A DNA stretch of 64,000 nucleotides from Rubripirellula sp. (GTDB taxonomy: Bacteria; Planctomycetota; Planctomycetia; Pirellulales; Pirellulaceae). The notes under the pieces are model-generated. The model had not been told where the DNA came from and ran no database searches. It worked only from the letters and a program-made list of their open reading frames with translations. The stretch is from positions 96,001 to 160,000 of the forward strand of contig OZ244207.1 in the NCBI GenBank assembly GCA_965216875.1, written 5' to 3'. The translations under genes were made by a program, and so were the position numbers. This document shows positions 5,085 to 40,679 of the stretch, one piece after another (within the stretch, counting starts at the first letter, position 1; each line of letters starts with the position of its first letter).

Positions 5085-8000
5085 CTAGAGTTGCTCAAAG
5101 GGGATTGGCTTGAGGCACCAGGCATAGACGCGTGTTCGTCCCGATCGCGGACCAACGAACGGGTCGTCCACGATTTCACCTTCGAACGATGTCAGGCCGC
5201 TATTGGAGGTGTCGTCAAATTCGATGACCCATAGGTGTGAACCTTGCCACGCGAAGGAACCGACGACAACCACGTTATCACCCTGATCAGTCGAGTCGAC
5301 TGTCGCCTGGTAGCTATGAATTGCGTTGGCGGTTGTGAACTCGTAGCCACGGGTGTAAGTGTCATACTGCAAGTGTTCCCACTGTGCATGAATGAACTCC
5401 GTGCCGAGTCCGAAGTCTTCGAAGGTGATCGTTGATGCGACTTGTCCATTCGCATCGATCGTCGTGTTCACTTCATCCTGGTACGTGTTCACGTAGTCAC
5501 GAACATCCTCGACATCGATGCGCAAGAAATGATCGTACCATTTTTGGATGTAGAACGAGAAATGGTGCTCCGCTTCGGCGGTCGCTCCTTTTTCGTTCAT
5601 CGTCTGCACTCGCGAACCATCGTCGAAACGTTCGTCTTTCGAATGGACATCCCCATCCGCTTCGACGGTAAACGCATTCTTGTAGGCGTATCGATCAACG
5701 TCAGCCCAGCGCACATCGTCGCTGTTGGCTGACATGCTGTCCCATTCGGATTCGCGTTCCCAATACGTTGCTTCGTCTCGAGTCCCAGTTTGCAGTGGCA
5801 ATGCGACGGGACCGAACTCGCCCGTATCGTGTAGCGGTGTGATCGTCGACACGCCGGTGTGGGTCACGATTTGACCTTGCCCGTCACGTTTTATCGTTTC
5901 TTCAAAGTCAAACTCATGACCAAACGTCGATGTTCTGCTGAAGCGGTCATCATCGAACCAATCCGAGAAGCCCTCGTGCAGCTGCTCGAGCGTCACGGTG
6001 TAGTGTCGGAAGCCACCGTGGGGGCCGCATTTGTCGACGGTTATGTAGTCGATGTCATAGCAATTGGGCCTAGCATCCGCCATGTCTTCCCAGCCATTGC
6101 CGTAGAGTCGAATCAGGTTGGCCTTTGCGTTTCCGGGCAGGTTAGGGTTTTCGCTATGACGCACACCGAACCAGTTGTAGTAACCCTCGGCATCCGATCG
6201 CCAAAGACCTTGCGCCCCCCCGGCAAATTGGTGGGTCTCGATTGATTGCACTCCTCCACCAATTTCCGTGCCGTAGTCAGTCAGTTCGTTGTGGAAGTCG
6301 TAGGCAAAGACATCGTCAACCTCCTCGGCCCAATCGTCTCGCTGGTAGCGCGTGAAGAAGTCTGGGTCATCAGGTTCACTGGGATCCGCCGAAGCTAATT
6401 CGAAAAAGCCCTCGAGCGCGCCGTTGTGTCGCGCCAAGGCATCGCCAAAGTCCATATCCCACGTCACTGCGTTCAGGACGTGACCGGTGGCCGTTTCCTC
6501 TCGATCATGCTCTGTGTACCAAGCCCGGATGTACTCGATGTCGGGACTAAACAGGCTTTCTGAATAGGGCAGGCTCGTGTTTTCGGGAATCGTGTGCGGC
6601 AAGTAATCAATATACGATTGATAGAATTGAGCCGTTTCTGGATTCCCGTCCGGCCGGATGGTCGCTCGAAGGTAGCCATTGCCGACACCCGAAATGGACC
6701 AATAGGTCGTGTCGTCGTGGCCGTGGCCGTACTCGACTTCATCAAAGGTCGTCCCGTTATTGAAGCGTTGCAACCGGTTTCGGGACTCGATGCCCACGTG
6801 ACCTACTTCCTGCCAGAATTCGTCGACCGAAGCAGAGTCATCGTAGTTGGGATAAACCAGCTGGTCGTCATAGAGGAATTCGCCGTAGTTGACGGACCAA
6901 TAGTTTGAACGCTCGCCGCTGGCTGTTTCTCTCCAACTCAGGTCGCCTTCCGGGGGCGTGGCGTCCCACGTTGAGGTGATGAACTGCTCATCGTAGGTGT
7001 TGGTACGAAACGTCCCTTCGGCATCGTAAAGCTGGCCATCTTGATGGACGTTTAGGGTGTCGGGATTTGCCGAGACGGCGATATCCCAGTCGGTTGACGT
7101 CAGGCCGTTAAACTCACTCTTGTACTTCTTGTAGCCGAACCGGCGCACGTAAACATCGGGGTCGTAGCCGTAGCCATACCCGTCGTTGTAGTCGTAGCCA
7201 GCATCGCCGCCGTAGTCATAGCCGTAGTCGCCGCCGTAGTCGCCGCTGTAGTCGTAGCCGTATCCATATCCGTAGCCCCCCGAGCCGGATCCGCCAGTTG
7301 GAATCGGAAGCGGTAGTGTAAACCCGTTGGAATCGTGCCACAGCTGAAGTTCGCCCATCGCACTTCGGTCGTTCAAGACCGATTGCAGCTGAATTGGCTC
7401 GAGCGCAGATTCAACACGTTCCTGTCTCGTTGTGCCGGATGGATTAATCGGTGGCGGTGCAGCAGCGGGGGCGTCGAGATTCATCAGGATCACGTCATGC
7501 TGCTCACGATCCCTGACCGTGGCGAGGTAGCCGTAGGATTCGTAGATCGTTTCGCCGGGCAGGGTGTCTGGGGTTAACGATTCAAAGTACCAATCGTCAA
7601 AGTTGTCTTCGTAGAACTCGTCGATCGAATAGAAGGTGACTCCATTGGCGTCTCCCTGAAGACTGAACTGCAACTCGAAGGTTCCAAACTGTTGCAGGAG
7701 TCGTTGACGCACCAATGGGAACTCGGGGCCACTTTGGATCCCGTTGTCTTGGATGTAGTCCGCAAACGCTCCGCTGGGGTCAGGAACGCCATAACTACTG
7801 AATTCGTCGGGCGCCGGCAGCCCGACTGGAATCGCTTCGTCGTACCACTGAGTCGTGATAGTGAATCCAATCAGCAGGTCCTCACTGTAACTCCAGCTGC
7901 TCGCAAGATCGCCAGAGAAACCATCTGCCAAGTTCCACTGCAGGTCGTAGCTGACGGTCTTTCCTTCGTCGGGGAATTCTTCAACAACATTGATGTTGCC

Positions 8001-8645
8001 GGCTGATTGAGCGTACGGTGTCGTTGGTGGTGAAATCTGATCAGCGTCAACATCACTCCAGGCGATGATGTCGGGGAAGAAGTGTTTGATCGAATCGACG
8101 TCAAACATCCATTCCTCTTCGTTGTAAGTGTCGACGCTGTACGGCCTCAACTCGGGCGCCGACATGATTCCTGGTTGATACAGGTTGCGTGCATCGAGTC
8201 CATTGCGCGAGAGGATTGGGGATGGCGCTTCGGGGGAAACCGAGAGCGGTACCTGCGGAATAGGATCCGGATCATAGGGGTACGTTCCGGTGTCTCGTAC
8301 TGATGGAATCGCTGGCCCAAACTCCAACCGGGCGGTTTCGAAATCGGGAAGGAATCGGTCAACTTCATTGTTGTTGTGGATGCCGACGCCGTATCCGTTG
8401 TCGATCTTTCGCGCTTCTGATAGTAGATCGCGACGCAACAGCAGAGAGCGATCAATCAAGTCGGTCTCGGCCAGCCGCGAATTCTGCGGCAAGTTGATGC
8501 CAGGAGCCTGTCCCAGCGGGTTGGAGATCGCGCCAACAAGCAACCGTCGCGTCTCAAGGATTTCTAAACGCAGGTCTCGCTGCTTGCGTTGCTTTACGCG
8601 CACGCGCCGACGCAATTGCAGATTGGAATTCATGTTGCACCCCAT
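5085..8645 (-). CDS. Large acidic extracellular protein with a planctomycete-extracellular leader and a Gly/Tyr/Asp low-complexity insert
   Basis: N-terminus RRRVRVKQRKQRDLRLEILETRRLLVG matches the Planc_extracel-type motif; 1186-aa ORF rich in D/E/Y/W; no other domain recognised. Start may be 8633. Confidence 0.8.
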   Translation of the reverse strand: MGCNMNSNLQLRRRVRVKQRKQRDLRLEILETRRLLVGAISNPLGQAPGINLPQNSRLAETDLIDRSLLLRRDLLSEARKIDNGYGVGIHNNNEVDRFLPDFETARLEFGPAIPSVRDTGTYPYDPDPIPQVPLSVSPEAPSPILSRNGLDARNLYQPGIMSAPELRPYSVDTYNEEEWMFDVDSIKHFFPDIIAWSDVDADQISPPTTPYAQSAGNINVVEEFPDEGKTVSYDLQWNLADGFSGDLASSWSYSEDLLIGFTITTQWYDEAIPVGLPAPDEFSSYGVPDPSGAFADYIQDNGIQSGPEFPLVRQRLLQQFGTFELQFSLQGDANGVTFYSIDEFYEDNFDDWYFESLTPDTLPGETIYESYGYLATVRDREQHDVILMNLDAPAAAPPPINPSGTTRQERVESALEPIQLQSVLNDRSAMGELQLWHDSNGFTLPLPIPTGGSGSGGYGYGYGYDYSGDYGGDYGYDYGGDAGYDYNDGYGYGYDPDVYVRRFGYKKYKSEFNGLTSTDWDIAVSANPDTLNVHQDGQLYDAEGTFRTNTYDEQFITSTWDATPPEGDLSWRETASGERSNYWSVNYGEFLYDDQLVYPNYDDSASVDEFWQEVGHVGIESRNRLQRFNNGTTFDEVEYGHGHDDTTYWSISGVGNGYLRATIRPDGNPETAQFYQSYIDYLPHTIPENTSLPYSESLFSPDIEYIRAWYTEHDREETATGHVLNAVTWDMDFGDALARHNGALEGFFELASADPSEPDDPDFFTRYQRDDWAEEVDDVFAYDFHNELTDYGTEIGGGVQSIETHQFAGGAQGLWRSDAEGYYNWFGVRHSENPNLPGNAKANLIRLYGNGWEDMADARPNCYDIDYITVDKCGPHGGFRHYTVTLEQLHEGFSDWFDDDRFSRTSTFGHEFDFEETIKRDGQGQIVTHTGVSTITPLHDTGEFGPVALPLQTGTRDEATYWERESEWDSMSANSDDVRWADVDRYAYKNAFTVEADGDVHSKDERFDDGSRVQTMNEKGATAEAEHHFSFYIQKWYDHFLRIDVEDVRDYVNTYQDEVNTTIDANGQVASTITFEDFGLGTEFIHAQWEHLQYDTYTRGYEFTTANAIHSYQATVDSTDQGDNVVVVGSFAWQGSHLWVIEFDDTSNSGLTSFEGEIVDDPFVGPRSGRTRVYAWCLKPIPFEQL

Positions 8646-21849: not shown

Positions 21850-24800
21850 CTAGAACAACGACGATTCCGCGAGCAGCTCGTCCAAGGCAGCATCGTTGAT
21901 GGCATCGTCGTCATCGTCCTGGATGAGCTCGCCGGCAAAGACAGGCCTGTCATCGTTGATTCCGTTGATGACCAACAACGCGTCAAGCGATGTGACGATG
22001 CCATCGGCCGAAGTATCCACAAAGCCGAAGAATGGCACAGCGTGGTCCAGTGCACTTGCGCCGGAGCCATAGCGTCCCATGAAATTGATGACGATCAATG
22101 CATCGACGGGGGAAACGTCGTCATTCGCATCGACATCCAGGGTGTCTCTCTGATTGGTCAAAGGAGTAGCACCGAGTTCAACTGCGACCGTCAGCGGAGT
22201 TTCACTAAACAGATCAAGAGGTCCTGGCTCGAAAGCTCGCACGGTCAGCTCATAGGTGCCCGCATCTGTTGGCCTCGGAAGCCCGGACAACGTTCGGCTT
22301 GCTTCGTCAAAATCGAGCCATTCGGGAAGTGAACCGTTGGCATCAAAGATCGCGATCGAAAACTCACGGCCTTCCGGGTCAACGATGAGGTCTTCGGGCA
22401 GGACGTATTCAAGTGGCTGTCCGCTACCGAGCGTGTCGATGGTCGGTGCCGCCGCCGTGAAGACGGGTGGTTCGTTGACGTCGTTGAGCAGCACGGCGAT
22501 GGTGCCGGTATTGGTCAACCCGCCGCTGTCAGTGACGCGAACTTGAAGTTCAAGCGGATCGGAGGGCACGTCGGCATCGAAGGTTGCACCGTTTGCAACG
22601 GTCAACACTCTGGTGTTCGGGTCGAGGTCAAAGAGTGACTGCGCGTTACCGCCGATGATCACGGTGGTTGCAAAGTCGACTTGGTCCTCGTCGCGCACCT
22701 GAACTTCCACTTTGCCAACTGGCGTGCCTGGGGTTGCCAGTTCCGACACGATCACTTCGTCGGTGATCAACGAGGGTGCGTCGTTTTCGTCGCGAAGGTT
22801 GACCGTCAAACGTTGAACCGAGGCGGGGTCACCCGCAGCGGTCAACTCAAAATCGATTTCAAAAGTCGGGTCCGTTTCAAAATCGAGCACCGCTCCTGCG
22901 CGAACGGTCAGTTCATTGCTGGTCGGATCAAACGTGAAGTTCGACGCGTCTGCAGAGTTCAGCATGCGAATTGCATAGTCCGCGATCACATTCTCTGGAT
23001 CGTGACCTTGAAGTGTTGCGACGGGAGTTCCTGCAGCCGCGTTTTCGACCAATTCGACCGATCCTGGGCTCAGGATTCCGGGTTCGTTGACGTTGTTGAT
23101 CAACAATGTGATGGTCGCTTGGCTCGCCTCGGGCGGTTGTCCGTTGTCGCTGACACGAACATCAAGGGTGTAGCTTGTCGCCGTTTCGAAATCGACGACC
23201 GCTCCTGGGCGAACAAAAATCGCTCCGTCGTCGCTGACGTCAAAGATGGCGTCCCCGCTACCGCCAAGCAGCTCAAAGGCGTGCTGTTGGTCACTATCTG
23301 GGTCGGCCACAAGCAACTGCGCGACGGTGCCGACGCTGTTCTCGCGAACCAAGAACGCCGTCGAGCTGATCAGAGGTGTGTCGTTCTGATCAATGACATG
23401 GATGACTTGCGTGTACGACGTGACAGCCGGGGTCGGCGCGCTATCGCGAATCAGGACGTTGAGTTCGAGTCGGTCTTGCTGTTCAAAATCGATGCCAGCT
23501 TCATTGATGAGTGTGATCAGGCCATTGGAATCATCGACGTTGAAGATCCCTGCCCCCGATCCACCGATGACGGTGAAGGTCAGATCGTTGTCCATCGTAT
23601 CGGGGTCGGCTGCTTGAATCTGTCCAATCGCCGTTCCATTGATCGTGCCTTCTGCCACCTCGAAGACTTCCGCGTCGACGATTGGGTCCTCGTTGACATC
23701 AAGTAGATTGATCAAGACGTTGGCGGTGTCGCTTGCTCCCAATGGATCGGTCACCGAAACGGTCAAGGCGAGCATCGGAGTCTGCTCGAAGTCGAGCACC
23801 GCATTGGGCGCGACGCTCAAGATCCCGCTCACAGGGTCAATGAGGAATCCTAGATCCTCTCCCGATTCGATCGCAAAGGTCGATGATTGAGGGTCGGGGT
23901 CCTGACTCGTGATGGCACCAATTTCGGTTCCGGGTGGCGCGTTTTCGTCGACTGCAAAAATGAACTCGTCATCGAGCGATGGGGCACTGTTTTGACGCAG
24001 CAGGAAATCGATTTGAAGGTTTTCGTTGTCGGTGATCCGAGCCATCTGACCACTGCCACCAATCAAACCTTCGGATTCGCCGTCTTGCAAAACGGTGATG
24101 TCGTAGTTGCCTGGCCGCAAATAGGGCAACTCATACATGCCTTGCGCGTTGCTGATTCCCGCTGCTTCGCTTTGCACATAGGCGAAGTTATCGAATCGAG
24201 CCAGCGACGCACTGCCACGAATGTTCTCGGCGTACGCGACCGCGAAGGCAATGTCCTCGTCCGCGGAGGTGACGGTCACCGTCGTTCGTTGTTGACGAAT
24301 GACGACATCGCTGACGTTGGTTGCGACCAATTCGCCAGCCGCGTTGTAGGCGGCGAGCCTTCCATAGGTCGCACCAAAGACTCCCTCAGCACCGATGACC
24401 TGAATCGAAACTTCCTTGGCAGGACGGTAGAGGTCAAATCGAAGCCGGCGTGTGCTTTGGAACGTGTCGGTGGGCGGCGGATCGTCGCCACCCACTTGAG
24501 CTGCCGCAAAGATTCGATTGAACAGCGTGGCATTCCCCGCCGTCTCACGAACGCTTTCCACAGGGAAGCCAAGGATCTGGTTGTTGGACCCCGCCGTCGA
24601 AATCGTCACGCCTTCAAAGGCATTGCGAATGGGATGAGGGCCCGTCGGATCGGCTGGGTTGATGGCTTGGTTCGGATCGACGACGAAATTGACGTCGTCT
24701 CGCTGCTGATTTCCGTTGAGGTCTGCAAAGACCGTGACGTTGGCAAGCGGCTCAGGATTGCTCACCACACCAACAGGGTTGTTCGGTGGCAGGAACTCAA

Positions 24801-27402
24801 CCGTGCCACGAACGCCGCCCACGAAATTGCTCTTACCAAGATGGTCGGCATCTCGTCCGCTGAACGCAGGGTGACTCGGATCGCCATTTTGACCCGCCAA
24901 GAATTCAAACGCCAAAGCACGCCCGGTGTTGGGATCGACACCCGTCGAATAGACGTCACCAAAGACCCAATCATCAACCCGGCTACCGACGGAGTCTCCG
25001 ATCCGGGCAGCGTAGCCTGATCCGAGTGCCCGCGAAACCTCAACGCCACTTTCGACGATCACGTTCAACCGGTTCGGCGGAGCGGTGTCTTGCAAGAGGA
25101 TTTGGCCATAGGCTTGGCGACTGGTCACGCCGCCAGGGTGAATGGAAACCGAATCGCGAATCTCCCAGTCAGCAAGTAGTCCGGTGGAGTCAGCGCGACC
25201 ATCCTGGTTTGCGTCGATCGATTCACCCACAACCGGTGGGACCGATGACGTGATCAAGAAGTAGCCGTTGGCGCCGCCGTCGCCGTTGAGTCGATTGGCT
25301 CCGTCATCGGCGTCAGAATAAATGTCGCCAGGCAATCCACCGAATCCGGCTGAGGTCGACGCCAAGGTCAGGCTCGCCGGATCTGTCACACTCAAGCTGT
25401 CGAGCTGAACCAAATTCAAGAAGCCATTGGCGCCCAGTGCTTGGTCGCTCAAATCGATCACGGTGTGAATCGTGCCCGCCGCGTTGTTGTCTTCGTCCAC
25501 AACAACGAAGTAGGTGTTCGCTGGGATCTTGCCCCCGGCAGGGCCGCGGATCTCGAGGTACTGGTCTCTATCGGGACTGCCCATCTGCGGATCAAGCATG
25601 ATCTCGTTGATGTAGTAACCAGGGTCACCTCGATCAATCCCCACGGGGATCGAGTCTGCAAGGCCAAAGTCGACATTGGTCCGCGTCTCATCGCCAAGGT
25701 TGACCAAATGCGGTACATCACCGAATCGATTGTGTTGCAGCGACTCGGCGTCCAAACGACTCTGCGCGAGCAGTGGACCAGAGGACACATTTCCGGTGTC
25801 GGGGTCAACAAGTAACGATTGCGTGTTTCCGGGAGATGCGTCGTCGAGCATCAAGAAACCGTTGCCGTCAAAGGCAAGCGACGTGCTGTCGATTGGCAAA
25901 TTGGCGGTTGCCAACAACCGACCGACACCGTCCGTTTCAAACTCAAAGAATTGATCGGTCGAATTGCTGAATCCAACGACGCGTTGACTTACGTAGTCAA
26001 ATGCCAGATCGCTGACCGTTCCGACGCCAGCCAGTCCGCCAGCGCCAAGCGATTGGATCGGTGCGGCGATCGCGTCATAGGCGGCTCCAGGCGTTGTCCC
26101 GGAATCGAGGACGGTGCCCGCCCCGGTTTCGGGGTCGATTTGAATCACACTCTGACTTGCGCTGTTGGTGGTCGCGAACAGCGAACCGTCTGCGGCCACG
26201 GTCAGTGATCGCAATTCACCTGCGCCCGAGAAGGCTGGATTGGGCAATTGCGTTGCCCGCCCCGTATCAGGATCGACGGTAAAAAGGTGCGAAGCATTAA
26301 TGACGTAGTGGACGCCATCGGGACCAATGTCAAACCCCGTGACCGCAATCGGACGCGAAAACAGATCGCGGATCGGAACCGGATTGCTTGTCGCGCCGGT
26401 CGTCGTGTCGATTCGATAGAGTGTCGAATTGGTTTCCGAGACACCCATCAGCTGGTCAAGGCGATTGAATCCGATGGCTGAGATTGCGCGATCGAGATTT
26501 GCGACTGTGTTTCCCGCAGCATCGGCTTCGGTCACCGCGTAGCGGTTGAGCGTACTTGATGCCGAGACGCCGAACAGCACACCATCGCTTCGAGCGTCAA
26601 GCGACTGCGAACGTGGCGGCAAGGTGCTGCCAGGGACCAACGTCGCGTTTTCTGTTGCCAAATCAAAATTGTAGAACCGACGTGAAAAGTTCATGACCAG
26701 CAGATCGGTCGGCGTTACTGCGGCTGTCGACCCGAGCTGACCAGAAAAGCGATTGACCGTTGCAATCGATACATCGCCATCAACGTTGATCACCGTATAG
26801 ATAGTGTCGGTGCCGGCGTCGTAGGCGAGGCCTGATTCAAGATCGACACCCGCCCGCGAAAGCTCGGTCTGGGCCCCAGTGATGGGATCAAGCGAATAGA
26901 TGGTGTCGCTGGTTGCGTTGATCCCCAACAACGAACCGTCGTTGGTACGGACCACGTCATCCATGTTCACGGAGTGAAAGCTAGGAAAGAACTGTGCGAA
27001 TCCGTCTTGGGCAAGATCGAACACGCGGTTGGATCCAAGGCCCTGGGTCCCTGATCCAATGAAGTTGGTGGGAAAGGTCTGGACTCCGCCCGACGAATCG
27101 ATTCGCACCCGGTAGCCGCGTGGTGCGATGTTCTCAAAAGAGTACTCACCGTTGGCGTCGGTGAAGGTCGATGGTTCGTTCGGGTCGGCCTGACGGTTGT
27201 TGTTGAAGTCGACGTAAACCTGGACATTCTGTGCGCCTGATTCCGCCGGGTCTCGGACACCGTCGGAGTTGTCGTCAACAAACACCGTGCCCGTTATCGC
27301 GGCTAACAAACAACGTTGTTCAAGCGATTCAAAAAGCGTTCGTCGTTTGCTACGTTTCCGGTCCTTTTTCGATGCCGCTACTCGCGCTGCTGAATGGATC
27401 AT
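21850..27402 (-). CDS. Giant extracellular adhesin-like protein: planctomycete-extracellular leader, SdrD-B-like domains, beta-propeller, lamin-tail-like domain, about 5 cadherin repeats, Ig-like domain, C-terminal dockerin-like domain
   Basis: KRRTLFESLEQRCLLA; ITGTVFVDDNSDGVRD...TDANGEYSF; YINEI...QYLEIRG; repeated LDFE/VDFE...DVNE-P cadherin signatures; LPEWLDFD...LSGLP; DVDANDDVSPVDALIVIN and DTSADGIVTSLDALLVIN. Confidence 0.9.
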   Translation of the reverse strand: MIHSAARVAASKKDRKRSKRRTLFESLEQRCLLAAITGTVFVDDNSDGVRDPAESGAQNVQVYVDFNNNRQADPNEPSTFTDANGEYSFENIAPRGYRVRIDSSGGVQTFPTNFIGSGTQGLGSNRVFDLAQDGFAQFFPSFHSVNMDDVVRTNDGSLLGINATSDTIYSLDPITGAQTELSRAGVDLESGLAYDAGTDTIYTVINVDGDVSIATVNRFSGQLGSTAAVTPTDLLVMNFSRRFYNFDLATENATLVPGSTLPPRSQSLDARSDGVLFGVSASSTLNRYAVTEADAAGNTVANLDRAISAIGFNRLDQLMGVSETNSTLYRIDTTTGATSNPVPIRDLFSRPIAVTGFDIGPDGVHYVINASHLFTVDPDTGRATQLPNPAFSGAGELRSLTVAADGSLFATTNSASQSVIQIDPETGAGTVLDSGTTPGAAYDAIAAPIQSLGAGGLAGVGTVSDLAFDYVSQRVVGFSNSTDQFFEFETDGVGRLLATANLPIDSTSLAFDGNGFLMLDDASPGNTQSLLVDPDTGNVSSGPLLAQSRLDAESLQHNRFGDVPHLVNLGDETRTNVDFGLADSIPVGIDRGDPGYYINEIMLDPQMGSPDRDQYLEIRGPAGGKIPANTYFVVVDEDNNAAGTIHTVIDLSDQALGANGFLNLVQLDSLSVTDPASLTLASTSAGFGGLPGDIYSDADDGANRLNGDGGANGYFLITSSVPPVVGESIDANQDGRADSTGLLADWEIRDSVSIHPGGVTSRQAYGQILLQDTAPPNRLNVIVESGVEVSRALGSGYAARIGDSVGSRVDDWVFGDVYSTGVDPNTGRALAFEFLAGQNGDPSHPAFSGRDADHLGKSNFVGGVRGTVEFLPPNNPVGVVSNPEPLANVTVFADLNGNQQRDDVNFVVDPNQAINPADPTGPHPIRNAFEGVTISTAGSNNQILGFPVESVRETAGNATLFNRIFAAAQVGGDDPPPTDTFQSTRRLRFDLYRPAKEVSIQVIGAEGVFGATYGRLAAYNAAGELVATNVSDVVIRQQRTTVTVTSADEDIAFAVAYAENIRGSASLARFDNFAYVQSEAAGISNAQGMYELPYLRPGNYDITVLQDGESEGLIGGSGQMARITDNENLQIDFLLRQNSAPSLDDEFIFAVDENAPPGTEIGAITSQDPDPQSSTFAIESGEDLGFLIDPVSGILSVAPNAVLDFEQTPMLALTVSVTDPLGASDTANVLINLLDVNEDPIVDAEVFEVAEGTINGTAIGQIQAADPDTMDNDLTFTVIGGSGAGIFNVDDSNGLITLINEAGIDFEQQDRLELNVLIRDSAPTPAVTSYTQVIHVIDQNDTPLISSTAFLVRENSVGTVAQLLVADPDSDQQHAFELLGGSGDAIFDVSDDGAIFVRPGAVVDFETATSYTLDVRVSDNGQPPEASQATITLLINNVNEPGILSPGSVELVENAAAGTPVATLQGHDPENVIADYAIRMLNSADASNFTFDPTSNELTVRAGAVLDFETDPTFEIDFELTAAGDPASVQRLTVNLRDENDAPSLITDEVIVSELATPGTPVGKVEVQVRDEDQVDFATTVIIGGNAQSLFDLDPNTRVLTVANGATFDADVPSDPLELQVRVTDSGGLTNTGTIAVLLNDVNEPPVFTAAAPTIDTLGSGQPLEYVLPEDLIVDPEGREFSIAIFDANGSLPEWLDFDEASRTLSGLPRPTDAGTYELTVRAFEPGPLDLFSETPLTVAVELGATPLTNQRDTLDVDANDDVSPVDALIVINFMGRYGSGASALDHAVPFFGFVDTSADGIVTSLDALLVINGINDDRPVFAGELIQDDDDDAINDAALDELLAESSLF

Positions 27403-32872: not shown

Positions 32873-34999
32873 CTATTGGAACGATCGCCGAATCCAACGC
32901 ACCACGCGCGTCGCGATCGATTGACGTGGCAAATCGATCTGAACGTGACCGAGGCGATGGACTGGCATGACCGGGCCGCCCGGATCAATCGCGATCCGAA
33001 CGCGATAGAACTTGAGACGACCAGCGTCGAGCAAAGACTTGTTGATCATGCCCGTTGCAGTCCAACGCGGTTCGAGCCGATCGGCAGGCATCGCTGAGAT
33101 CGCGGCCACCGTTCCCGTGGTTTCGCTGGCCTGATCACCAGCAGCGATTTTGACTGTCGCGCCGAGAGCAACCTGAGCGATCTCTGTCTGGCCAACCAAT
33201 GCGAACGCATCACGTCTCGTTGGATGGCCGATGGTGCAGAGTGTGGTTCCTGCTTCCAACCACGCACCCTCATTGGCTGGCGAAAGTGGGGTCTGAATCC
33301 AAGCTTGGCTCTGGTCGTCATCCACAACCTTGGGCTTCCATTGAGCGGCGAAGACTTTGCCGCCAACCGGAGCGTGCACTTTGAGTCTTTGCGCGTGCTG
33401 TTGCAAAGACGCGTGTCTGAGTCTTGCTCCCACGATCTGCTTCTCAATCGCAGGGATGCGGTCTGCGACCGAGGGTTCCGAGGAACGTCTCGCTTGAAGC
33501 GTTTCCCATTCTGCATCGAGCGTCGCCATTTCCGTCTCCAGCTCAAGAAGATCGAGGGTGGCTTTCGCGCTGGCCAGCGTAACAACAAGATCCCCTTCTT
33601 CAACGAGCTGTCCGACGGAGGCCGAGGAAACGCGGTTGCCAGCAACGGGAACGAAGACCGATCGGCCATCCGACGGCGCTATCGACATCGGTGCGATGAG
33701 CGAATGGGGCAACGGTGTGAAAACGATAATTGCGAGAAGGATCGAGGCCATCATGATCACGACGGCCGGACGACTGTTTCGGCGACCAGCCATCTCTCTC
33801 GGACGACTTAGCAAAGGCTTGAGCCAGCGTGCCGTTCCCAACGCAATGCCGACGATGAACAACGCCACGACGGCGCCTCCCAGGCCGACTCGCTGCCCGG
33901 TGTGATTGAGAAACAACCCAATCGCTACCATCACGAACGCACGATACAAACTGCTTGACACTCCGTAGGCCCACAACGTTTTGGTTGGTGCCCCAGAGTC
34001 ACTTGGGCGCGTCGACTGCGATCGCCCCCACACCCAATCACGCAACCTCTGACGGATCAATGCTTGCGACTGACTGGCAAGATTGGGGATGGCGATCAAA
34101 TCGGAAAGGACAAAGTAGCCGTCATACCGCAGCAGCGGGTTGGCGTTGAACAAGACGGTCGAAACCGAACAGACAAGCATGATCGTGACGCACACGTCTC
34201 GCAGTGCTGTGTCGGTTGCAAAGCACCACACGAACGTGGCAAGTGCCGCGAGCATCAACTCACATCCGATCCCCGCCAGTGATACAACGATTCGCTTCCA
34301 CCGTTGGCGGACCAGCCACGCGTCAGACACATCGCAGTAGAGGCACGGAATGCCGACCAAAAACATGAGGCCGATCTCTTGGCACTGGCCACCCACGCGC
34401 CGACAAGCGACGGCGTGTCCTAACTCGTGAATGATCTTGGTCATCGAAATGACCAGAGCCAGCATCACCCACCAACCGACGCCCGACTGCGAAGCAGCGA
34501 CGGAAAGGTCTTGGGCGAATTGATCGAAGTTGACCAAGACAATGATTGAGGCGAAAGCAACAAGGACACCCGTCAACGCGATGAACCTGGGGCCAAACGC
34601 AAACCCAAACACGGGGGCCAACTGATTGAGTAAGCGATGTGGGTTCACGCCTGGCAAACGGATCGCAAGTGGATTGCGCAGCCAGTTCCGGTTTTCCCTG
34701 CTGACTTGCGTTGTGCTTTCGACAAGTAAGCCGTTAACACCAGCCTGTTCGATGAAGGATTCGATCGCCGCCGAGGTGACCGTCGCTGGTTTGATGCGAC
34801 GACGGCATTCGGCGACGACATCGGCAAGCGTTTTCTTGCCATCGAGAGACTCAAGGATCTCGTATTCGCCCGGCTCAAAGTAAAAGAATCGACGAGTGAG
34901 CGGGTCTTTCACTGCAAACATCACCCGCTGTCCCATCTCGATGGGACGAACAACGAGGTCGCCGCGTCGTTTCGCAATGGGGCGCGAGTCGTTCGTCAC
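32873..34999 (-). CDS. PqqD/RRE-like + M50 site-2 zinc metalloprotease + HlyD-type adaptor fusion
   Basis: N-terminal VKDPLTRRFFYF...ILESLDGKKTLADV; HELGH (HExxH); NANPLLRYDG (NxxP...DG); many TM helices; C-terminal lipoyl/coiled-coil/beta-barrel region. Confidence 0.88.
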   Translation of the reverse strand: MTNDSRPIAKRRGDLVVRPIEMGQRVMFAVKDPLTRRFFYFEPGEYEILESLDGKKTLADVVAECRRRIKPATVTSAAIESFIEQAGVNGLLVESTTQVSRENRNWLRNPLAIRLPGVNPHRLLNQLAPVFGFAFGPRFIALTGVLVAFASIIVLVNFDQFAQDLSVAASQSGVGWWVMLALVISMTKIIHELGHAVACRRVGGQCQEIGLMFLVGIPCLYCDVSDAWLVRQRWKRIVVSLAGIGCELMLAALATFVWCFATDTALRDVCVTIMLVCSVSTVLFNANPLLRYDGYFVLSDLIAIPNLASQSQALIRQRLRDWVWGRSQSTRPSDSGAPTKTLWAYGVSSSLYRAFVMVAIGLFLNHTGQRVGLGGAVVALFIVGIALGTARWLKPLLSRPREMAGRRNSRPAVVIMMASILLAIIVFTPLPHSLIAPMSIAPSDGRSVFVPVAGNRVSSASVGQLVEEGDLVVTLASAKATLDLLELETEMATLDAEWETLQARRSSEPSVADRIPAIEKQIVGARLRHASLQQHAQRLKVHAPVGGKVFAAQWKPKVVDDDQSQAWIQTPLSPANEGAWLEAGTTLCTIGHPTRRDAFALVGQTEIAQVALGATVKIAAGDQASETTGTVAAISAMPADRLEPRWTATGMINKSLLDAGRLKFYRVRIAIDPGGPVMPVHRLGHVQIDLPRQSIATRVVRWIRRSFQ

Positions 35000-36090
35000 G
35001 GTTGCTCCAAACTCGCCTGGATTTGCATTCCCGGCAAGACTGCGTGGTCGGGATTGTCGAACTCAACCCAAAACCGCACCTCGTTATTGACGGGGTCGAT
35101 TTCGGGACTGACAAAAACAACTTTGCCCGTGATGTTGCCCGCGTTGTCACCGGGCAAGTCGACGCTGATGTTGACCGGTTTGCCTTTTGTCAAGACGTCA
35201 AGCCGTGCTGCATCGATGTAGCCCTCGGCTCGAAGCCGATCCAATCGAATGACGCGAAAGATCGGATCACCCGCTTTCACCCAGTCACCGACGTTGCAAA
35301 AGCGTTCGACGACCACACCGACCATGGGCGACGCGATGGTATGTTGCTCGGCCGCCAGTCGGGCCAACCTCCATTGTTGGTCCTGCAAGTCACTTTGCAG
35401 GCGCTCGATCTTTTCATCCGCATGAACTTGGGCCAACTCGATTTCGGATTGCTCCACATTGAGCTGATGCGCCATGGCCGCTTTCGATTCGGCTTGATGG
35501 TCCAATGCGTCGATTTCAAGTTCGAAGGTCGCTTGCACCGTTTCGAGTCGGCTGCGGTCATAGGCCAAGCGAAGGCCATCGATTTCTGATTGCGAAACGC
35601 TGTCGCGGTACCTTGCCCGCGCCGTTGTCGCTCTTTCAAGCTCGTTCTTGGCGACTTCTTGTGCCTTTTCCGAGGCCTGGATTCGCGTTTGGTTTTTTGC
35701 CTTTTTCGCAGCAGCTTCAAGTTGGATCCCGTGCTGGGATTTGAGTTGCTTCTGATGTGCGAGTTTCTTCTCTGCAAGTGCTTGGGCCAACGCATCATCG
35801 GCCTGGGAAACGGCAATCTCACGCTGGGTCTTCGCACGTGCCTCTTCAAGTCGAGCACGGCGATCGTCGAGTCGGCCGAGGGTTTGTTTCGCCTGGACGT
35901 TGTCGCCCTCGCGCACCCGCAATTCGGCAACCACACCGGTATGCTGGGCCGGCACGTTCACCGAATCAATCAGCGTTACCACCAGGTCGTTGATGATGAT
36001 CGGTTCACTCGCCGAGGCCCCGCCAAGTTGCGAAAAAAAGGCTGCGACGAAAAGACCGGCCGATGTGACAATCGTTTTTGTCGATTTCAT
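34996..36090 (-). CDS. HlyD/RND-type periplasmic adaptor (membrane fusion protein)
   Basis: Signal peptide; VPAQHTGVVAELRVREGDNV; long coiled coil; IASPMVGVV...VGDWVKAGD; FVSPEID; LPGM. 4-bp overlap with the downstream gene. Confidence 0.9.
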   Translation of the reverse strand: MKSTKTIVTSAGLFVAAFFSQLGGASASEPIIINDLVVTLIDSVNVPAQHTGVVAELRVREGDNVQAKQTLGRLDDRRARLEEARAKTQREIAVSQADDALAQALAEKKLAHQKQLKSQHGIQLEAAAKKAKNQTRIQASEKAQEVAKNELERATTARARYRDSVSQSEIDGLRLAYDRSRLETVQATFELEIDALDHQAESKAAMAHQLNVEQSEIELAQVHADEKIERLQSDLQDQQWRLARLAAEQHTIASPMVGVVVERFCNVGDWVKAGDPIFRVIRLDRLRAEGYIDAARLDVLTKGKPVNISVDLPGDNAGNITGKVVFVSPEIDPVNNEVRFWVEFDNPDHAVLPGMQIQASLEQP

Positions 36091-36097
36091 GTTTCTG

Positions 36098-38032
36098 TCA
36101 CCACCAAAATTGTTTGCGAGACCATTCGATCAAACTGCGAAACCAAACGAATCCGAGTGTGCGTTTTCCACAATCGATTTTTGCAATCACGGTCGCACCA
36201 AGGCGAAACTCCTCATGCGATGCCTCATTATTTGACGTATCACCGATGGACGATACGAGCCGCACAACCGATTTACCTTGTCCATTGACGTAGGCGGCAT
36301 CGTCGGACTGGTCGATTTCTGCCCGATAAACACGACTCGAGCCAGAGGCCATTCGGAATTCAACCGCACGAGGTGTGTCGTTGTTGCCAAGCACGTAGGC
36401 CGATTGATTGTCGGGTAGCTCGTATTCGACACGCCAGCCAGCGGTGGTTGAGTAAACGTCGGCAATGAATTGACCGTGAGTGAGGGGCCGCGACAATAAC
36501 GATTGCTCGAGGTTCCAGCGATCCACGATGCCATCGATGGGCGACACCACTTTCAGCTTTCCGCGTTGGGCGACCACAACCTCGATCTGCTTCTCAAGTC
36601 CCTCGATCTGCGTCTGCAGCACACGTTCCTCGGCTGAACTTGGAACGCTTCGGTCCTGCGATTGCCGGTTGGTTTGTCGACGGCCAACATTGAGTGCCGC
36701 AAGCTGTGTTCTGGCCGTATTTAACTTGGCTTGTCGTTCTTCGAGTGCCAAGTCCAGTGCATCGCTTTGAAGCTCGACCAACAGTTGACCCTGTTTGACC
36801 GAGTCACCATTGCGGACGTGGATTTCGACCACGCCAGCTTCGGACGGCGCAAACACACGCGTCATCACCGCCGGTTGTAACCTGCCTTCGACAGGCAACC
36901 AAAAAGTGACAGGAAAGCAAAGGAGGATGCCCAAGGCAGCAAGCACCCCCAAGCCAACTCGCATCCGGGTACGTCTCGCGTTTTCCGATGACAGACGTTG
37001 CGCAAGTTGAGCTGGCGAACCAAGGTGACGCTGAATGGTGATCCCGATCGCTGACGAAACACTCGAACGCATCGAATCGAAGGCGTCAGGTGACAGTTGA
37101 GACGCTGACCCAAAACTCTCGATTGCAATCGCGGCCACGATTTGGTCGTTCTGTCGAATCGGTTCAATCACAATCCCCGCGCAGGTCGAAACGGCAAAGT
37201 AGTCATCGATTGCGGCTTGCATCGTCGGTTCAGCCGGTGTCTCGTCGTGCCGAGTGGCGAAGAGTGGGGCGCCGGCGGCAGTCACTCGTTTCATCAAGCG
37301 TTCGAGCAAGCGAACCTGATTGCTGCGTCGATCAAAATTCAAACATGACGAAACCGCTTCAAGTCGGGCTTTGCTTCCGTCGCTGATTGCGACCGACACA
37401 CGTTCGAATTCACCTTTCTTTGCGACCAGCATTGAAAGACGGTACAGCGATTCTTGCAGGCTGGCTTCACGGTTGATTTGATCAAGCCAATCGTCACGCT
37501 CGCTCAAGCCACGGATCGCTTCACGGGCCGATGACAACTGTTGGCGAACATGAACCGATGCGAGCAGGTCGATGATCGCCTCGGCCAGGTGCGCCAGCGG
37601 TTGCCGCATCGGAAACGCAACGCTTTGCGGAAACTGAAGCTCCATCGCGAGACGCGTGGCACCTTCGATTCGCGTCGAGACGACAAGCTGGCTCGCAGTG
37701 GACGAATCGTCGTCGATCCAACTCGAGCCGACGTTTGTTCCAGGGTGTTGGTTTGCCTTATCTGGTTGCACGTCTGCCGAAGGGGCTTGATCCGAAACGA
37801 CCGCCACGCCGCAGCGCTCGATGACGCGTGTCGATTCACCGTCATCTTCACTGAGTGTGGCTGATGCTGCTCCGACAAACGAAGTCAGCTGATGGAGCAT
37901 TTGACTGAAAAGGCGGCCGCAGGCCTGACCGTCCGTCGGGTCGACCGAACGGCAGCTCGCTTCCGCGTTGGCGACAAAGGCCTCGGCGTCATTCCAGAAG
38001 GGGTTCGCTTGTGGCTCGGACGGTGCCATCAA
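36098..38032 (-). CDS. HlyD-type adaptor with N-terminal cytoplasmic GAF-like region
   Basis: ~350-aa N-terminal region (FERVSVA...LEAVS...FDRRSNQVRLLE), one TM helix, VFAPSEAGVVEIHVRNGDSVKQGQLL, coiled coil, VVSPIDG, IDCGKRTLGFVWF. Confidence 0.85.
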   Translation of the reverse strand: MMAPSEPQANPFWNDAEAFVANAEASCRSVDPTDGQACGRLFSQMLHQLTSFVGAASATLSEDDGESTRVIERCGVAVVSDQAPSADVQPDKANQHPGTNVGSSWIDDDSSTASQLVVSTRIEGATRLAMELQFPQSVAFPMRQPLAHLAEAIIDLLASVHVRQQLSSAREAIRGLSERDDWLDQINREASLQESLYRLSMLVAKKGEFERVSVAISDGSKARLEAVSSCLNFDRRSNQVRLLERLMKRVTAAGAPLFATRHDETPAEPTMQAAIDDYFAVSTCAGIVIEPIRQNDQIVAAIAIESFGSASQLSPDAFDSMRSSVSSAIGITIQRHLGSPAQLAQRLSSENARRTRMRVGLGVLAALGILLCFPVTFWLPVEGRLQPAVMTRVFAPSEAGVVEIHVRNGDSVKQGQLLVELQSDALDLALEERQAKLNTARTQLAALNVGRRQTNRQSQDRSVPSSAEERVLQTQIEGLEKQIEVVVAQRGKLKVVSPIDGIVDRWNLEQSLLSRPLTHGQFIADVYSTTAGWRVEYELPDNQSAYVLGNNDTPRAVEFRMASGSSRVYRAEIDQSDDAAYVNGQGKSVVRLVSSIGDTSNNEASHEEFRLGATVIAKIDCGKRTLGFVWFRSLIEWSRKQFWW

Positions 38033-38443
38033 ATTGTCAGACGCAGAGGCGGTGGTTGTTTGCGGTCGAGTTTCAACGGCGTCGCCCTTTGCTCCGCAAT
38101 CGTTGCCTTGGTCGCCGCTATTGATAGTCGACTTTTGCTCCGCAAAAGCTGCGTTCTTGCAGGCGCTGCGTTCGCGGAGCGAAAGGCGACGATCGGGAGC
38201 ATGGTACTCAGCTCAAACACCGCATTTTAACCAGCGTCACGCCCAAGACGGTGATCGAGGCACTGTTTCACGAACATCGCGGGAACAAGCTTCAAATCGT
38301 GACGATTTCACTGAATCCCCTCGGTCTGGTTGTACGAAAAAGAGAAACATTGCGGATTAGGCAGGATCTGCCGATTCACCCGTGAAGAGACGGACGTCTT
38401 GAAAGCAAACAACACCAAAGCGACTCGCCACCAGCCAATCCCG

Positions 38444-40264
38444 ATGACCGGGGTTTGCCGCGAGGCGGCTGCGCGATGGTTGCTGGTCGTGCTTGTCTTT
38501 GCCTCGGGGTGTCGAACCTATTGCAACGTGCCTGAAACAATCGGTCACAACACCGGGCTCATCGACGCCATCATGTGTCAGGTCGATGCGGGCGCACCCC
38601 CAAAGGAATTCGTCGAAGTTCCCACTGCACCGCTGACGTTGCGATTCGCTCACGATTTGGATCGTGTCGAGTATCGCGACATGACGCTCGAGGAAACGCT
38701 GCACTACGCACTTGGAAATGCTCAGGTGTTGCGTGATTTGGGGGCGGCCGTGTTGCGAACGCCCGGCGCCGTGTTGACGACCGAAACCAAAGGCATCATC
38801 GAAACCGACCCGCAAGCAGGCATTGAAGCGGCGCTCTCGGCTTTTGATGCCCAGTTCTATGCGTTTGGCAAATTCCAAAACAACGATCGACGGTTCAATA
38901 ACCGTTTCTTTGGCGGTGGTTCAACGGCATTCAAACAGGACACGCACGACTACGTGTTTCAGATGTCCAAGCGAACGGCAACGGGGGCGCAGTTCGCCGT
39001 CCGCAGCGTGACCGATTACGACGCCAACAATGCGACCGGCAATTTGACCGACAGCGCTTGGCAAACTCAATTGCACGCCGAAGCACGACAGCCATTGTTG
39101 CAAGGTGGCGGACTGACCTTCAATCGAATTGCTGGCCCAAGTGCCAAGCCCGGTGTGTACAACGGCGTGCTGATCGCAAAAGTGCAAAACGATCTGACGT
39201 CTTCAAAGTTTCGCCAGGGGACACGCGACTATGTTTCGAACGTGATCAACGCGTACTGGGACTTGTACTTTGCCTATCGCGACATGGATGCCAAACTCGA
39301 CGCACTCGGTCGCGCGCGGAAAACGTGGCAAAGCTACGAAGCGGATCGCAGCAGTGACCGAAAAGCGGGTGCACCCGAGGCGCTCGCGCGTGAACAGTAC
39401 TATCGTTTTCAGTCCGAACTCCAGGACGCGATCGCCGGCAAGCTGAACGAGCGGACCAAAGTCAACAATGCCAGCTCAGGCGGAACGTTCGCAGGCACCG
39501 GCGGTGTCCAGGCGGCCGAGCGACGATTGCGATTGTTGATTGGGATGGAGCTTGCCGACGGCAAATTGCTCAGGCCTGCGGATGATCCGAACCAGGCGCC
39601 CTTGGTTTTTGATTGGGATTCGATTGCCAAGGAAGCAATTGAACAACGAAGCGAACTTCAACAGCAACGGCTGACGATCAAACGCCGCGAGATGGAAATC
39701 CTTGCGGCCAAGAATTTTCTGATGCCATCGCTTGATCTGGTGACGATCTATCGCGTTCGTGGTCTGGACAAACGCCTTGCCGGAACGCAATCCGCATTTC
39801 GGGAACTCGGCACGATGGATTTCCAGGAATACGAAGCGAGCTTGGAACTGAAGCTGCCCGTTGGTTTTCGCCAGGGGCATGCAGCAGTGCAAAACGCCAA
39901 GCTGCAACACGCTCGCGACATCGCCCTGCTGCGTGAACAGGAACGCCAGGTGCTTCACGACCTTTCGTCGGTCGTCGCGGAATGCGATCGTGCTTTCGCC
40001 CAAATGGATTTGAATCTCAATCGCTTCGTCGCAGCGGGCGACGCGCTGGCCGCACTCGAGGCGAACCGGCAGGCGGGGATGAGTGTTTCGCTTGAACAAC
40101 TTCTCGATGCCCAGCGCCGTGCCAGCGAAGCACAGACGGCCTACTTTCGATCGGCATCCGAGTATTCCGTCGCAGCCAAGAACGTTCAATTCGAAAAAGG
40201 GACGTTGCTTCACACGGTCAATTTGATGATCGTCGAAGAGCCGCAGGTGATTTGGGAAGAGTAG
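38444..40264 (+). CDS. TolC family outer-membrane channel (lipoprotein signal)
   Basis: LVVLVFASG-C; RQPLLQG, VINAYWDLYFA, RSEL, MPSLDL, LLDAQRR two-repeat OEP pattern. Start uncertain (38399 TTG or 38444 ATG). Confidence 0.88.
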   Translation: MTGVCREAAARWLLVVLVFASGCRTYCNVPETIGHNTGLIDAIMCQVDAGAPPKEFVEVPTAPLTLRFAHDLDRVEYRDMTLEETLHYALGNAQVLRDLGAAVLRTPGAVLTTETKGIIETDPQAGIEAALSAFDAQFYAFGKFQNNDRRFNNRFFGGGSTAFKQDTHDYVFQMSKRTATGAQFAVRSVTDYDANNATGNLTDSAWQTQLHAEARQPLLQGGGLTFNRIAGPSAKPGVYNGVLIAKVQNDLTSSKFRQGTRDYVSNVINAYWDLYFAYRDMDAKLDALGRARKTWQSYEADRSSDRKAGAPEALAREQYYRFQSELQDAIAGKLNERTKVNNASSGGTFAGTGGVQAAERRLRLLIGMELADGKLLRPADDPNQAPLVFDWDSIAKEAIEQRSELQQQRLTIKRREMEILAAKNFLMPSLDLVTIYRVRGLDKRLAGTQSAFRELGTMDFQEYEASLELKLPVGFRQGHAAVQNAKLQHARDIALLREQERQVLHDLSSVVAECDRAFAQMDLNLNRFVAAGDALAALEANRQAGMSVSLEQLLDAQRRASEAQTAYFRSASEYSVAAKNVQFEKGTLLHTVNLMIVEEPQVIWEE

Positions 40265-40291: not shown

Positions 40292-40651
40292 ATGACGCAA
40301 CGAGACATCTGCGTTTCGCTCACGTGGTCGGACCAGGGGATTCCAGAAAAGACCCTCGATGCGAACGCACATCTGGAAATGGTGGTGGAATCCGCTGAGT
40401 CGAAGCAAACGCCTGGTTTGCCACCGCAATTGAGTTCCGTTTCGATTCACGGGAACCGAGCGGGGCTCGTCGCACTCGCAACGCGGCTATTGGCAATCGC
40501 CTACACCGACATCGAAGGCTACCACGAGCATTTTGATCACGAAGTACAATCGGGTTTCGTGTTGCACGTGGACGATTGCTGGGAATTGATCGTCGGCAGG
40601 AATGATCATCGAGCCATTCGAAGAGCCAACGACCAGCAAACGCCCACATGA
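40292..40651 (+). CDS. Small hypothetical protein resembling Imm32-type immunity proteins
   Basis: VSIHGNRAGLVALATRLL...GYHEHFD...ELIV resembles the 'GNxxGLxxLA...HxHxD' pattern; by eye only. Confidence 0.55.
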   Translation: MTQRDICVSLTWSDQGIPEKTLDANAHLEMVVESAESKQTPGLPPQLSSVSIHGNRAGLVALATRLLAIAYTDIEGYHEHFDHEVQSGFVLHVDDCWELIVGRNDHRAIRRANDQQTPT

Positions 40652-40679
40652 ATTGGGCTGGGTCTGCAGAGGATCGTTC

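Follow-up and report, generated by a model that had tools for sequence, protein, structure and literature searches.

Background

The closest described counterpart of the locus analysed here is a module that Kamneva, Poudel and Ward (2015; PMC4452313) identified computationally, in which an M50-HlyD fusion, a stand-alone HlyD protein and a GAF-HlyD protein, with or without an outer-membrane efflux protein (OEP), occur together with a secondary SecA_DEAD protein and without an ATP-binding cassette (ABC) transporter. In the accessible parts of that paper SecA is proposed as the ATPase and the M50 protein as the pore, a regulatory role is suggested for the GAF protein, the secondary SecA is described as lacking the wing/scaffold domain, some secondary SecA genes are unlinked, and the role of the module is called completely unknown; the same parts name no RRE (recognition element of RiPPs, ribosomally synthesised peptides with post-translational modifications), no cargo, no leader and no role for proteolysis. 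We examined a locus of this kind from Rubripirellula sp. (GCA_965216875.1, contig OZ244207.1, positions 96,001 to 160,000). This stretch of 64,000 nucleotides, hereafter the window, is part of a complete 8.26-Mb planctomycete chromosome, and Pirellulaceae are the closest named relatives of the locus. A preliminary description, made from the letters of the window, had called the system undescribed, a claim that falls with the module of PMC4452313. We consider it rather probable that this ABC-less tripartite module exports large surface proteins with an N-terminal Planc_extracel/LEPR-XLL leader, which would be bound by an RRE domain and cut by the M50 protease.

The leader itself has a separate literature. 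According to PMC8567305, Studholme et al. 2004 put forward the motif RRLxxExLExRxLLA as a novel export signal. The giant proteins Cag_663/665 of Chlorobium carry LEPRxLL, for which a recent preprint proposes TolC/SapC/HlyD plus autotransport (10.64898/2026.03.19.712371). In the accessible parts of these two sources the motif (Planc_extracel, PF07595; LEPR-XLL, NF012209) is not tied to the module; the Chlorobium species in question is listed among the carriers of a secondary SecA. No publication linking leader, RRE and module was found in the literature searched, to which subscription papers, bioRxiv supplements and the picture-only supplements of PMC4452313 could add more.

A third line of work concerns daptides, in which a fusion of an RRE with a site-2 protease (MpaP/DapP) is stated, in the accessible parts of 10.1101/2023.03.08.531785, to remove the leader of the precursor. 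There the daptide leader ELExMEAP occupies positions -8 to -1, and recognition by MpaB, the other RRE protein of the pathway, requires L(-7) and M(-4).

Architecture of the locus

Three closely packed genes on the minus strand diverge from a TolC gene, as had been described, and all four open reading frames (ORFs) were confirmed together with the 7-nt gap between the GAF-adaptor and adaptor genes (36091-36097) and the 4-nt overlap between the adaptor and RRE-M50-adaptor genes (34996-34999). The features of the locus are as follows.

32873..34999, minus strand: fusion of RRE, M50 site-2 protease and periplasmic adaptor, 708 aa (Pfam PF02163 and PF13437, NF041824, AlphaFold2 model, structure matches)
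34718..34981, minus strand: RRE (PqqD-like) domain, residues 7-94 (structure matches; near-cut-off PF05402 in homologs)
34415..34429, minus strand: HELGH zinc-binding motif, residues 191-195 (sequence and homolog alignment)
34118..34147, minus strand: NANPLLRYDG motif (from residue 285) with the third zinc ligand D293 (sequence and homolog alignment)
32891..33715, minus strand: C-terminal periplasmic adaptor (membrane fusion protein, MFP) domain, residues ~429-703 (MacA/EmrA/ZneB structure matches, Foldseek)
34996..36090, minus strand: stand-alone periplasmic adaptor, 364 aa (Pfam HlyD_3 E 1e-22, hydropathy scan, ortholog N-termini)
36098..38032, minus strand: GAF-like cytoplasmic region, one membrane helix (~355-383) and periplasmic adaptor, 644 aa (Pfam, hydropathy, homologs)
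38330..40264, plus strand: divergent TolC-family outer-membrane channel, 644-aa ORF (Pfam OEP E 8e-16)

A Pfam scan of the window proteins found neither an ABC nor a resistance-nodulation-division (RND) gene in the locus, in line with the preliminary description, and the nearest ABC gene (ABC-2 type, 48191-50444, plus strand) lies 8 kb from TolC with unrelated genes between them.

Both the 364-aa and the 644-aa minus-strand proteins match HlyD_3/HlyD_D23/biotin-lipoyl families in Pfam. The label 'GAF-like' that had been given to the larger one stands in part: the protein itself has no GAF match in Pfam, and its GAF identity is supported indirectly, by PF01590 in four of seven homologs. Its paralogs in loci B and C of the same genome (see below) match it at E 1e-39 and 4e-37, and an ortholog of the C-type paralog contains PF01590 at E 3e-10. 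Translation of this adaptor probably starts at ATG 38029. At the N-terminus of the middle adaptor and of its orthologs is a stretch that by eye resembles a signal peptide, and no membrane anchor was found in the adaptor at the hydropathy cut-off used; because of this shared N-terminal stretch the protein probably has a cleavable signal peptide and is soluble in the periplasm. The TolC protein probably starts at ATG 38444 and is probably a lipoprotein modified at Cys61 of the ORF, a lipobox cysteine that is kept in orthologs as judged by eye.

The locus thus has the same three adaptor-bearing proteins as the module of Kamneva and colleagues: an M50-HlyD fusion with membrane helices, a stand-alone HlyD/biotin-lipoyl protein and a GAF-HlyD protein (its GAF part recognised through homologs and paralogs), with an optional OEP, no ABC gene in the locus, and a secondary SecA_DEAD protein that is encoded elsewhere in the genome, outside the locus. 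A further locus of this genome, D, represents the full form. The differences are that SecA is unlinked here, that TolC is divergent, that a DUF3467 protein is a frequent extra member and that a whole clade manages without a secondary SecA.

The RRE-M50-adaptor protein

Pfam recognises Peptidase_M50 and HlyD_3 in the 708-aa protein, and its AlphaFold2 model (pLDDT 91.8) has about seven membrane helices between an N-terminal domain and the C-terminal adaptor. The N-terminal domain consists of three strands followed by three helices at residues 16-88, the arrangement of solved RREs, and residues 7-94 match the lasso-peptide RREs 6jx3_B (Z 10.1, rmsd 2.7, 83 of 85 residues) and 5v1u_A (Z 10.0, rmsd 2.9, 82 aligned) as well as TigE 8vpo_A (Z 10.2). 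The RRE-like domain suspected in the preliminary description is therefore borne out by the modelled fold and by Z values of about 10 to solved RREs. In profile searches PqqD (PF05402) reached 23.0 and 22.9 bits in the homologs P0002 and P0038, just below the cut-off of 23.4, and among PDB sequences a profile found PqqD 5sxy at no better than E 0.43. Foldseek with the full-length model returned adaptor matches only, and the RRE surfaced in the wide structure search alone.

The middle part compares with the site-2 proteases RseP (Z 10.4) and SpoIVFB (Z 10.1), and the C-terminal domain with the adaptors MacA, EmrA and ZneB (Z 14-14.5, with MacA at Z 14.5; Foldseek E 9e-13 to MacA). The catalytic motifs HExxH and NxxP..DG, which had been called intact, are so in this protein and in all 80 loci of the Genome Taxonomy Database (GTDB) considered below, and the residues H191, E192, H195 and D293 are invariant in the 107 aligned homologs among 120 listed.

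In NCBIfam the best match is NF041824 (daptide_HExxH; E 7e-52, residues 30-387), with 176.8 bits against a family cut-off of 300, and all seven further homologs scanned match the same family (E 1e-42 to 1e-55, 147-188 bits). As in the daptide RRE-peptidase, an N-terminal RRE is fused to an intact HExxH site-2 protease, and on profile evidence homology to the daptide leader protease covers the whole RRE-M50 half. The likeness to MpaP/DapP extends over residues 30-387 and to a leader motif in the same register, whereas DapP lacks an adaptor domain, has short RiPP precursors as its substrates and is encoded alongside ABC exporters. A search for shorter homologs returned mainly fragments and no named daptide protease, and no aminotransferase, DapB/C or methyltransferase was found among the 40 window proteins scanned with Pfam (ORFs below 100 aa were not examined). 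A complex prediction of the RRE-M50 half (residues 1-405) with a 40-aa leader, both supplied as alignments, scored 0.16 against a mark of 0.32, with controls not folded, and speaks neither for nor against the pairing.

Comparison with other export systems

C39-ABC exporters cut an N-terminal leader during export, and in Gram-positive bacteria the accessory SecA2 is a second SecA that serves large surface proteins with unusual leaders. The module studied here shares features with both kinds. Compared to C39-ABC exporters, an M50 metalloprotease plus an RRE takes the place of the C39 domain. A second SecA and large surface proteins with unusual leaders recall SecA2, while the SecA-like protein here would be coupled to adaptors and TolC instead of SecY2; SecY2/Asp genes were not noticed in the displayed neighbourhoods, for which no dedicated profile search was made, and an ortholog of the short SecA scores below every SecA2 cut-off in NCBIfam. 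With type I secretion systems (T1SS; HlyB-HlyD-TolC) the module has in common MFP adaptors, a TolC channel and large, acidic, Cys-poor, repeat-rich candidate cargo without a Sec signal. It differs from them in the absence of a cognate ABC transporter of HlyB/PrtD type, in its three different adaptors and in its SecA-like candidate motor, and from RND tripartite efflux pumps in the absence of a cognate RND transporter, since RND pumps found in the neighbourhood bring their own adaptor. Because there is no cognate pump, the module is not a member of the T1SS or RND families.

Leader-bearing candidate cargo

With an iterated profile, the leader motif was found within the first 200 residues of the frame in 67 proteins of the genome, and there were no internal matches at equal score. 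These proteins, whose number is a lower bound, have a median length of 1385 aa and comprise about 127,000 residues in total. Among the frames of at least 3000 aa, 15 of 17 have a leader, if four are counted that fall below the profile cut-off or were found by NF012209. The leaders are basic and have no hydrophobic core (one of the 67 has a segment at the membrane-helix cut-off), and the mature parts are acidic and Cys-poor. Two leader genes lie inside the window, both outside the operon, and are regarded as candidate cargo:

21850..27402, minus strand: 1850-aa cadherin/SdrD/dockerin protein with basic N-terminal Planc_extracel leader (motif ~27298-27348), putative cargo
5085..8645, minus strand: 1186-aa protein without Pfam match, with Planc_extracel leader (motif ~8529-8579), putative cargo

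In an alignment of 42 leaders the columns L, E, R and L are invariant, and they align with positions -7, -6, -4 and -1 of the daptide leader. In fetched loci and in the accessible parts of PMC8567305, other planctomycete families have L or P at position -1. Because the leader is in register with the daptide leader ELExMEAP, we predict a cut after LExRxL[L/P], with the following small residue as the mature N-terminus; the match falls short of proof and is taken as a lead. AA or AG stands at the end of many leaders.

At the other end of the chain, about 18 of the 67 proteins (counted by eye) share a C-terminal motif of the type FDFAxFR. Others, likewise by eye, end in an acidic 'D..LD.LL' tail, and these C-terminal motifs could be a surface anchor or a second signal. 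Most C-termini are mutually unrelated. RTX-like repeats number 22, 18, 27, 33 and 15 in successive fifths of the chain, a distribution that does not cleanly discriminate the direction of export. At C1:3196970-3215127 (minus strand) a 2249-aa leader-bearing frame overlaps a 3981-aa leaderless frame, and the two may be a single gene of about 6,000 aa that a frameshift interrupts.

Distribution across Planctomycetota

We searched 301 Planctomycetota genomes for the protease, with three candidates scored per genome, and found it in 93 of them. A search of the class Planctomycetia found it in 80 of 81 genomes, from 13 families, and many of the Planctomycetia have a single copy. The only Planctomycetia genome in which the protease was not detected (G003; 170 contigs, 100% complete) yielded no second SecA and no leader either, possibly as a natural loss of the whole system.

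The protease was present in 51 of the 55 genomes with an NF012209 match, in 24 of the 25 with at least four matches to the leader profile built here, and in 64 of the 68 with a second unsplit SecA, a count from which twelve genomes with two matches were dropped as having a split canonical SecA (the raw figure is 70 of 80). Within the 17 families of mixed status, NF012209 matched in 34 of 64 protease-positive genomes versus one of 55 protease-negative ones, and this lone match is mid-frame and shadow-like. Related genomes are not independent, so that Fisher p-values overstate the association and the co-occurrence counts are to be taken as indicative. The adaptor of the ABC-linked T1SS of this genome served as a control: used as query, it was found in 28 of the 301 genomes and in 12 of the 55 NF012209-positive ones, not in the leader-rich genomes G148, G267, G281 and G286, and in the leader-negative genomes G003 and G035.

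PF07595 alone is a poor phyletic marker, given that 12 of its 30 positive genomes have no protease. One of these 12 genomes has a real leader, nine have mid-frame or short-frame matches that are shadow-like, and two have no match to the leader profile; eight further leader matches from protease-negative genomes were likewise shadow-like. A mid-frame leader-like peptide recurs in many high-GC genomes (L035, L036, L106-L112), where it produces false PF07595/NF012209 matches, and it resembles the shadow frame of one conserved gene. Two supplementary trees that list no Gemmata might suggest that Gemmata-type planctomycetes lack the trio of GAF adaptor, adaptor and protease, an idea we rejected, as the protease was found in all families sampled and the trio in fetched loci. 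The proteome table of T. immobilis contains a short second SecA and a DUF3467 protein; that its two PF02163 proteins are RRE-M50-adaptor fusions could not be shown.

Paralogous loci and gene neighbourhoods

Six RRE-M50-adaptor genes, 23-34% identical and all with HExxH, are present in the genome. Locus D has the gene order OEP-SecA-HlyD-GAF-M50, a leader-bearing giant of 4,700 aa is encoded divergently from locus F, and a DUF3467 gene follows locus C. In the protease tree, which is a quick tree only, the window copy falls into a Planctomycetia clade with the paralogs B and C, and D, E and F stand apart; the window copy (A-type) is a Pirellulaceae paralog that evolves fast, with a TolC that stays well conserved. 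An orphan adaptor of the window-adaptor subfamily (E 3e-28) is found at C1:7030712-7031680 without the rest of the trio and could complete locus B, which has no stand-alone adaptor. A single ABC-MFP-OEP operon of T1SS type is found at C1:1851660-1857228, complete with adaptor and channel; within 6 kb of the other three ABC_membrane genes there was neither an adaptor nor a channel match.

Three SecA_DEAD proteins of 1234, 761 and 673 aa are encoded in the genome, and the two short ones, both unlinked to the window locus, are candidates for the unlinked ATPase that had been postulated. Orthologs of the 761-aa protein (56-62% identical) are encoded directly upstream of a C-type trio in G148, G261, G312 and L203, and no match to the wing/scaffold family PF07516 was found in the ortholog of G261. 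Because the SecA ortholog adjoins the trio in these relatives, motor and trio have probably been separated by rearrangement in this genome. In several Pirellulaceae (C1:7642418-7643935; L049, L203, L220) the short SecA gene has a divergent neighbour that encodes a BBP7 beta-barrel, which may be a further outer-membrane part. In two Pirellulaceae a ClpB/ClpV-type AAA+ gene adjoins the GAF-adaptor-protease trio (L048:6144-8999 in G148; L054:185-5919 in G261), and in G261 a TssF gene of the type VI secretion system also stands beside it; the AAA+ protein is either a second candidate motor or a chance neighbour.

Neighbourhoods were counted in the best 80 of 589 confirmed GTDB loci, many of them on short contigs. 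An adaptor gene is present in 67 of the 80, a GAF adaptor in 59, DUF3467 in 25, a divergent TolC in 12 and SecA in four. ABC genes (four loci) and RND genes (one locus, on the opposite strand and with its own adaptor) are not recurring members, so that the absence of a cognate pump, noted in the preliminary description, extends to orthologous loci. Eight of the loci repeat the exact layout of the window, with TolC 61-71% and the inner parts 26-49% identical.

The suggested link to giant proteins also gained support, as leader-bearing giants co-occur with protease genes and often adjoin them: in eight of the 19 genomes checked for position the best leader match lies within 16 kb of the protease gene, and the operons of G177 and G194 themselves contain the cargo gene, which in G177 has RTX, PKD and cadherin repeats.

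The DUF3467 protein (~100 aa; at L210:7455-7751, C1 ~6049457, in this genome) that flanks the trio is often 60-80% conserved, far above the trio itself, and its model (pLDDT 85) has its best structure match at Z 5.1 (COMM/PC4/Pur-like). A tandem DUF3467 gene occurs at C1:2460k.

Of the remaining genes in the window, an ABC-2 type transporter pair (48191-50444, plus strand) and a DUF2141 gene (47328-47969, minus strand) give no indication of belonging to the module. TolC is followed on its own strand by an Imm32 immunity-family gene and a Macro-domain gene (40292-41153, plus; Pfam), and a small basic protein at 31209-31616 (minus strand) exceeds the cut-off of TIGR04137 (Chlam_Ver_rRNA family).

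Proposed mechanism

Our data can be combined into a model in which the module probably works like a leader-cutting one-step exporter. The RRE would bind the LExRxL[L/P] motif of the leader in the cytoplasm, and a SecA-like ATPase would feed the unfolded chain into an inner-membrane channel made of the membrane helices of the M50 fusion and of the GAF adaptor. The M50 site would remove the leader, and the chain would then pass N-terminus first through a tunnel of three adaptors and TolC and fold outside. In Planctomycetia the motor would most likely be the short SecA-like ATPase, because its ortholog stands directly upstream of the trio in relatives.

Several observations weigh against this model. 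The first concern the motor, which is not fixed: no secondary SecA was found in 29 of the 93 protease-positive genomes, and a dedicated profile found only the canonical SecA in G256, G121, G194, G177 and G090. All five keep the trio, which in most of them has a giant repeat protein adjoining it or within it, and for this reason a dedicated SecA is usual, not required. Eight proteases of this SecA2-less kind form one clade (support 100, quick tree), a trio-plus-giant clade that comprises the loci L117-L125 and L065 (G256, G194, G177, G225, G090, G298, G293, G121); here the energy would have to come from the canonical SecA or from calcium-driven folding outside the cell. Others concern the cargo. 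NF012209 had no match in 42 of the 93 protease-positive genomes (its profiles are short, and about 27 candidates were scored per genome), one real leader protein occurs in the protease-negative genome G205 (on a 6-kb contig of an assembly with 6% contamination), and a leader gene lies within 10 kb in only four of the 80 GTDB loci. In the window the closest cargo gene is 5.5 kb away, with four unrelated genes intervening, and none is attached to the locus. In G035 and G222, adaptor and protease are kept next to an RND pump that brings its own adaptor, and no second SecA and no leader were detected there; a GAF adaptor is found elsewhere in G222. The register match with the daptide leader is short, and L-E motifs are common in RiPP leaders. 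The daptide mutational data, as far as given in the accessible parts of 10.1101/2023.03.08.531785, concern the RRE of MpaB and not that of the protease. Finally, the tie between cargo and machine is a prediction from sequence.

Alternative explanations

The evidence can be arranged in other ways, none of which we regard as likely. The best of them is a two-step route, in which the short or the canonical SecA hands the leader proteins to SecYEG, the RRE-M50 protein is only a leader peptidase, and adaptors and TolC collect the chains from the periplasm. Such a route needs no new inner-membrane pore, accounts for the clade with canonical SecA only and fits a middle adaptor that is apparently soluble in the periplasm, and SecA proteins are known partners of SecYEG. 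However, gating of SecY normally needs a hydrophobic core, which the leaders do not have. The secondary SecA moreover has no wing/scaffold domain, judging from the ortholog of G261 (no PF07516) and the accessible parts of PMC4452313. Two of the adaptors have an inner-membrane anchor and a cytoplasmic domain fused to them, which is what one would expect of a continuous conduit, and on this evidence we think a two-step route unlikely.

Somewhat less likely still is export in the opposite direction, C-terminus first, with the RRE anchoring the leader until a GAF-gated M50 cleavage frees the adhesin, comparable to LapG acting on LapA. GAF domains do suggest regulation, the many leaders ending in AA or AG are compatible with such a release, and the FDFAxFR-type motif of about 18 of the 67 proteins could be a C-terminal export signal. 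Against it, most cargo C-termini are unrelated, whereas the N-terminal motif is common to all (by definition of the set), and the RTX-like repeats extend along whole chains including the first fifth instead of being confined to the C-terminal part.

It is improbable that the locus serves signalling, with the GAF adaptor and TolC as an envelope sensor and the site-2 protease cutting a membrane regulator or a small peptide. The structural match of the M50 part to RseP and SpoIVFB would agree with this, as would the regulatory GAF role suggested in the accessible parts of PMC4452313 and the retention of the protease in G035 and G222, where neither cargo nor SecA2 was detected. However, no gene for a sigma factor, an anti-sigma factor or a small peptide stood out as a recurring neighbour of the fully displayed loci (small ORFs were not searched systematically), and the co-occurrence with leader-bearing giants and a SecA-like ATPase would be left unexplained.

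Finally, it is very improbable that the adaptors and TolC serve an unlinked ABC or RND transporter with conventional T1SS substrates as cargo, because the one T1SS-type operon of the genome, which together with RND pumps beside the protease in G035, G222 and L138 and RTX repeats in some cargo proteins might suggest it, has its own adaptor and channel, its adaptor does not track the leader genomes (12 of 55), the other three ABC_membrane genes are without a nearby adaptor or channel match, and ABC and RND genes are so rare in the GTDB loci (four and one of 80).

Conclusions

Beyond what is in print, our study adds the RRE and its kinship with the daptide protease, the near-universality of the protease in Planctomycetia and the tie to Planc_extracel, for which a T1SS adaptor served as control. 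It also predicts a cut site and adds a clade that does without a second SecA. Absent from the preliminary description are the candidate cargo tag Planc_extracel/LEPR-XLL, the five further copies of the locus in this genome and the small partner protein DUF3467. A more far-reaching reading, which we advance tentatively, is that the module represents a new class of one-step exporter: the missing Planc_extracel/LEPR-XLL system, which would set RiPP-style recognition and cleavage on a three-adaptor TolC conduit without ABC, RND or major facilitator superfamily transporter, would be near-universal in Planctomycetia, and would export chains of up to 12,000 residues N-terminus first, cut after LExRxL[L/P], with or without a dedicated SecA-like motor.

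If our proposal is true, an export signal that has been without a machine since 2004 and a T1SS-like module that has been without a cargo since 2015 would be joined. The secretion mechanism would do without a classical pump and borrow the leader logic of RiPPs. It would name the route taken by dozens of the largest planctomycete surface proteins (at least 67 in this genome), and plausibly also that of the giant symbiosis proteins of Chlorobium chlorochromatii.

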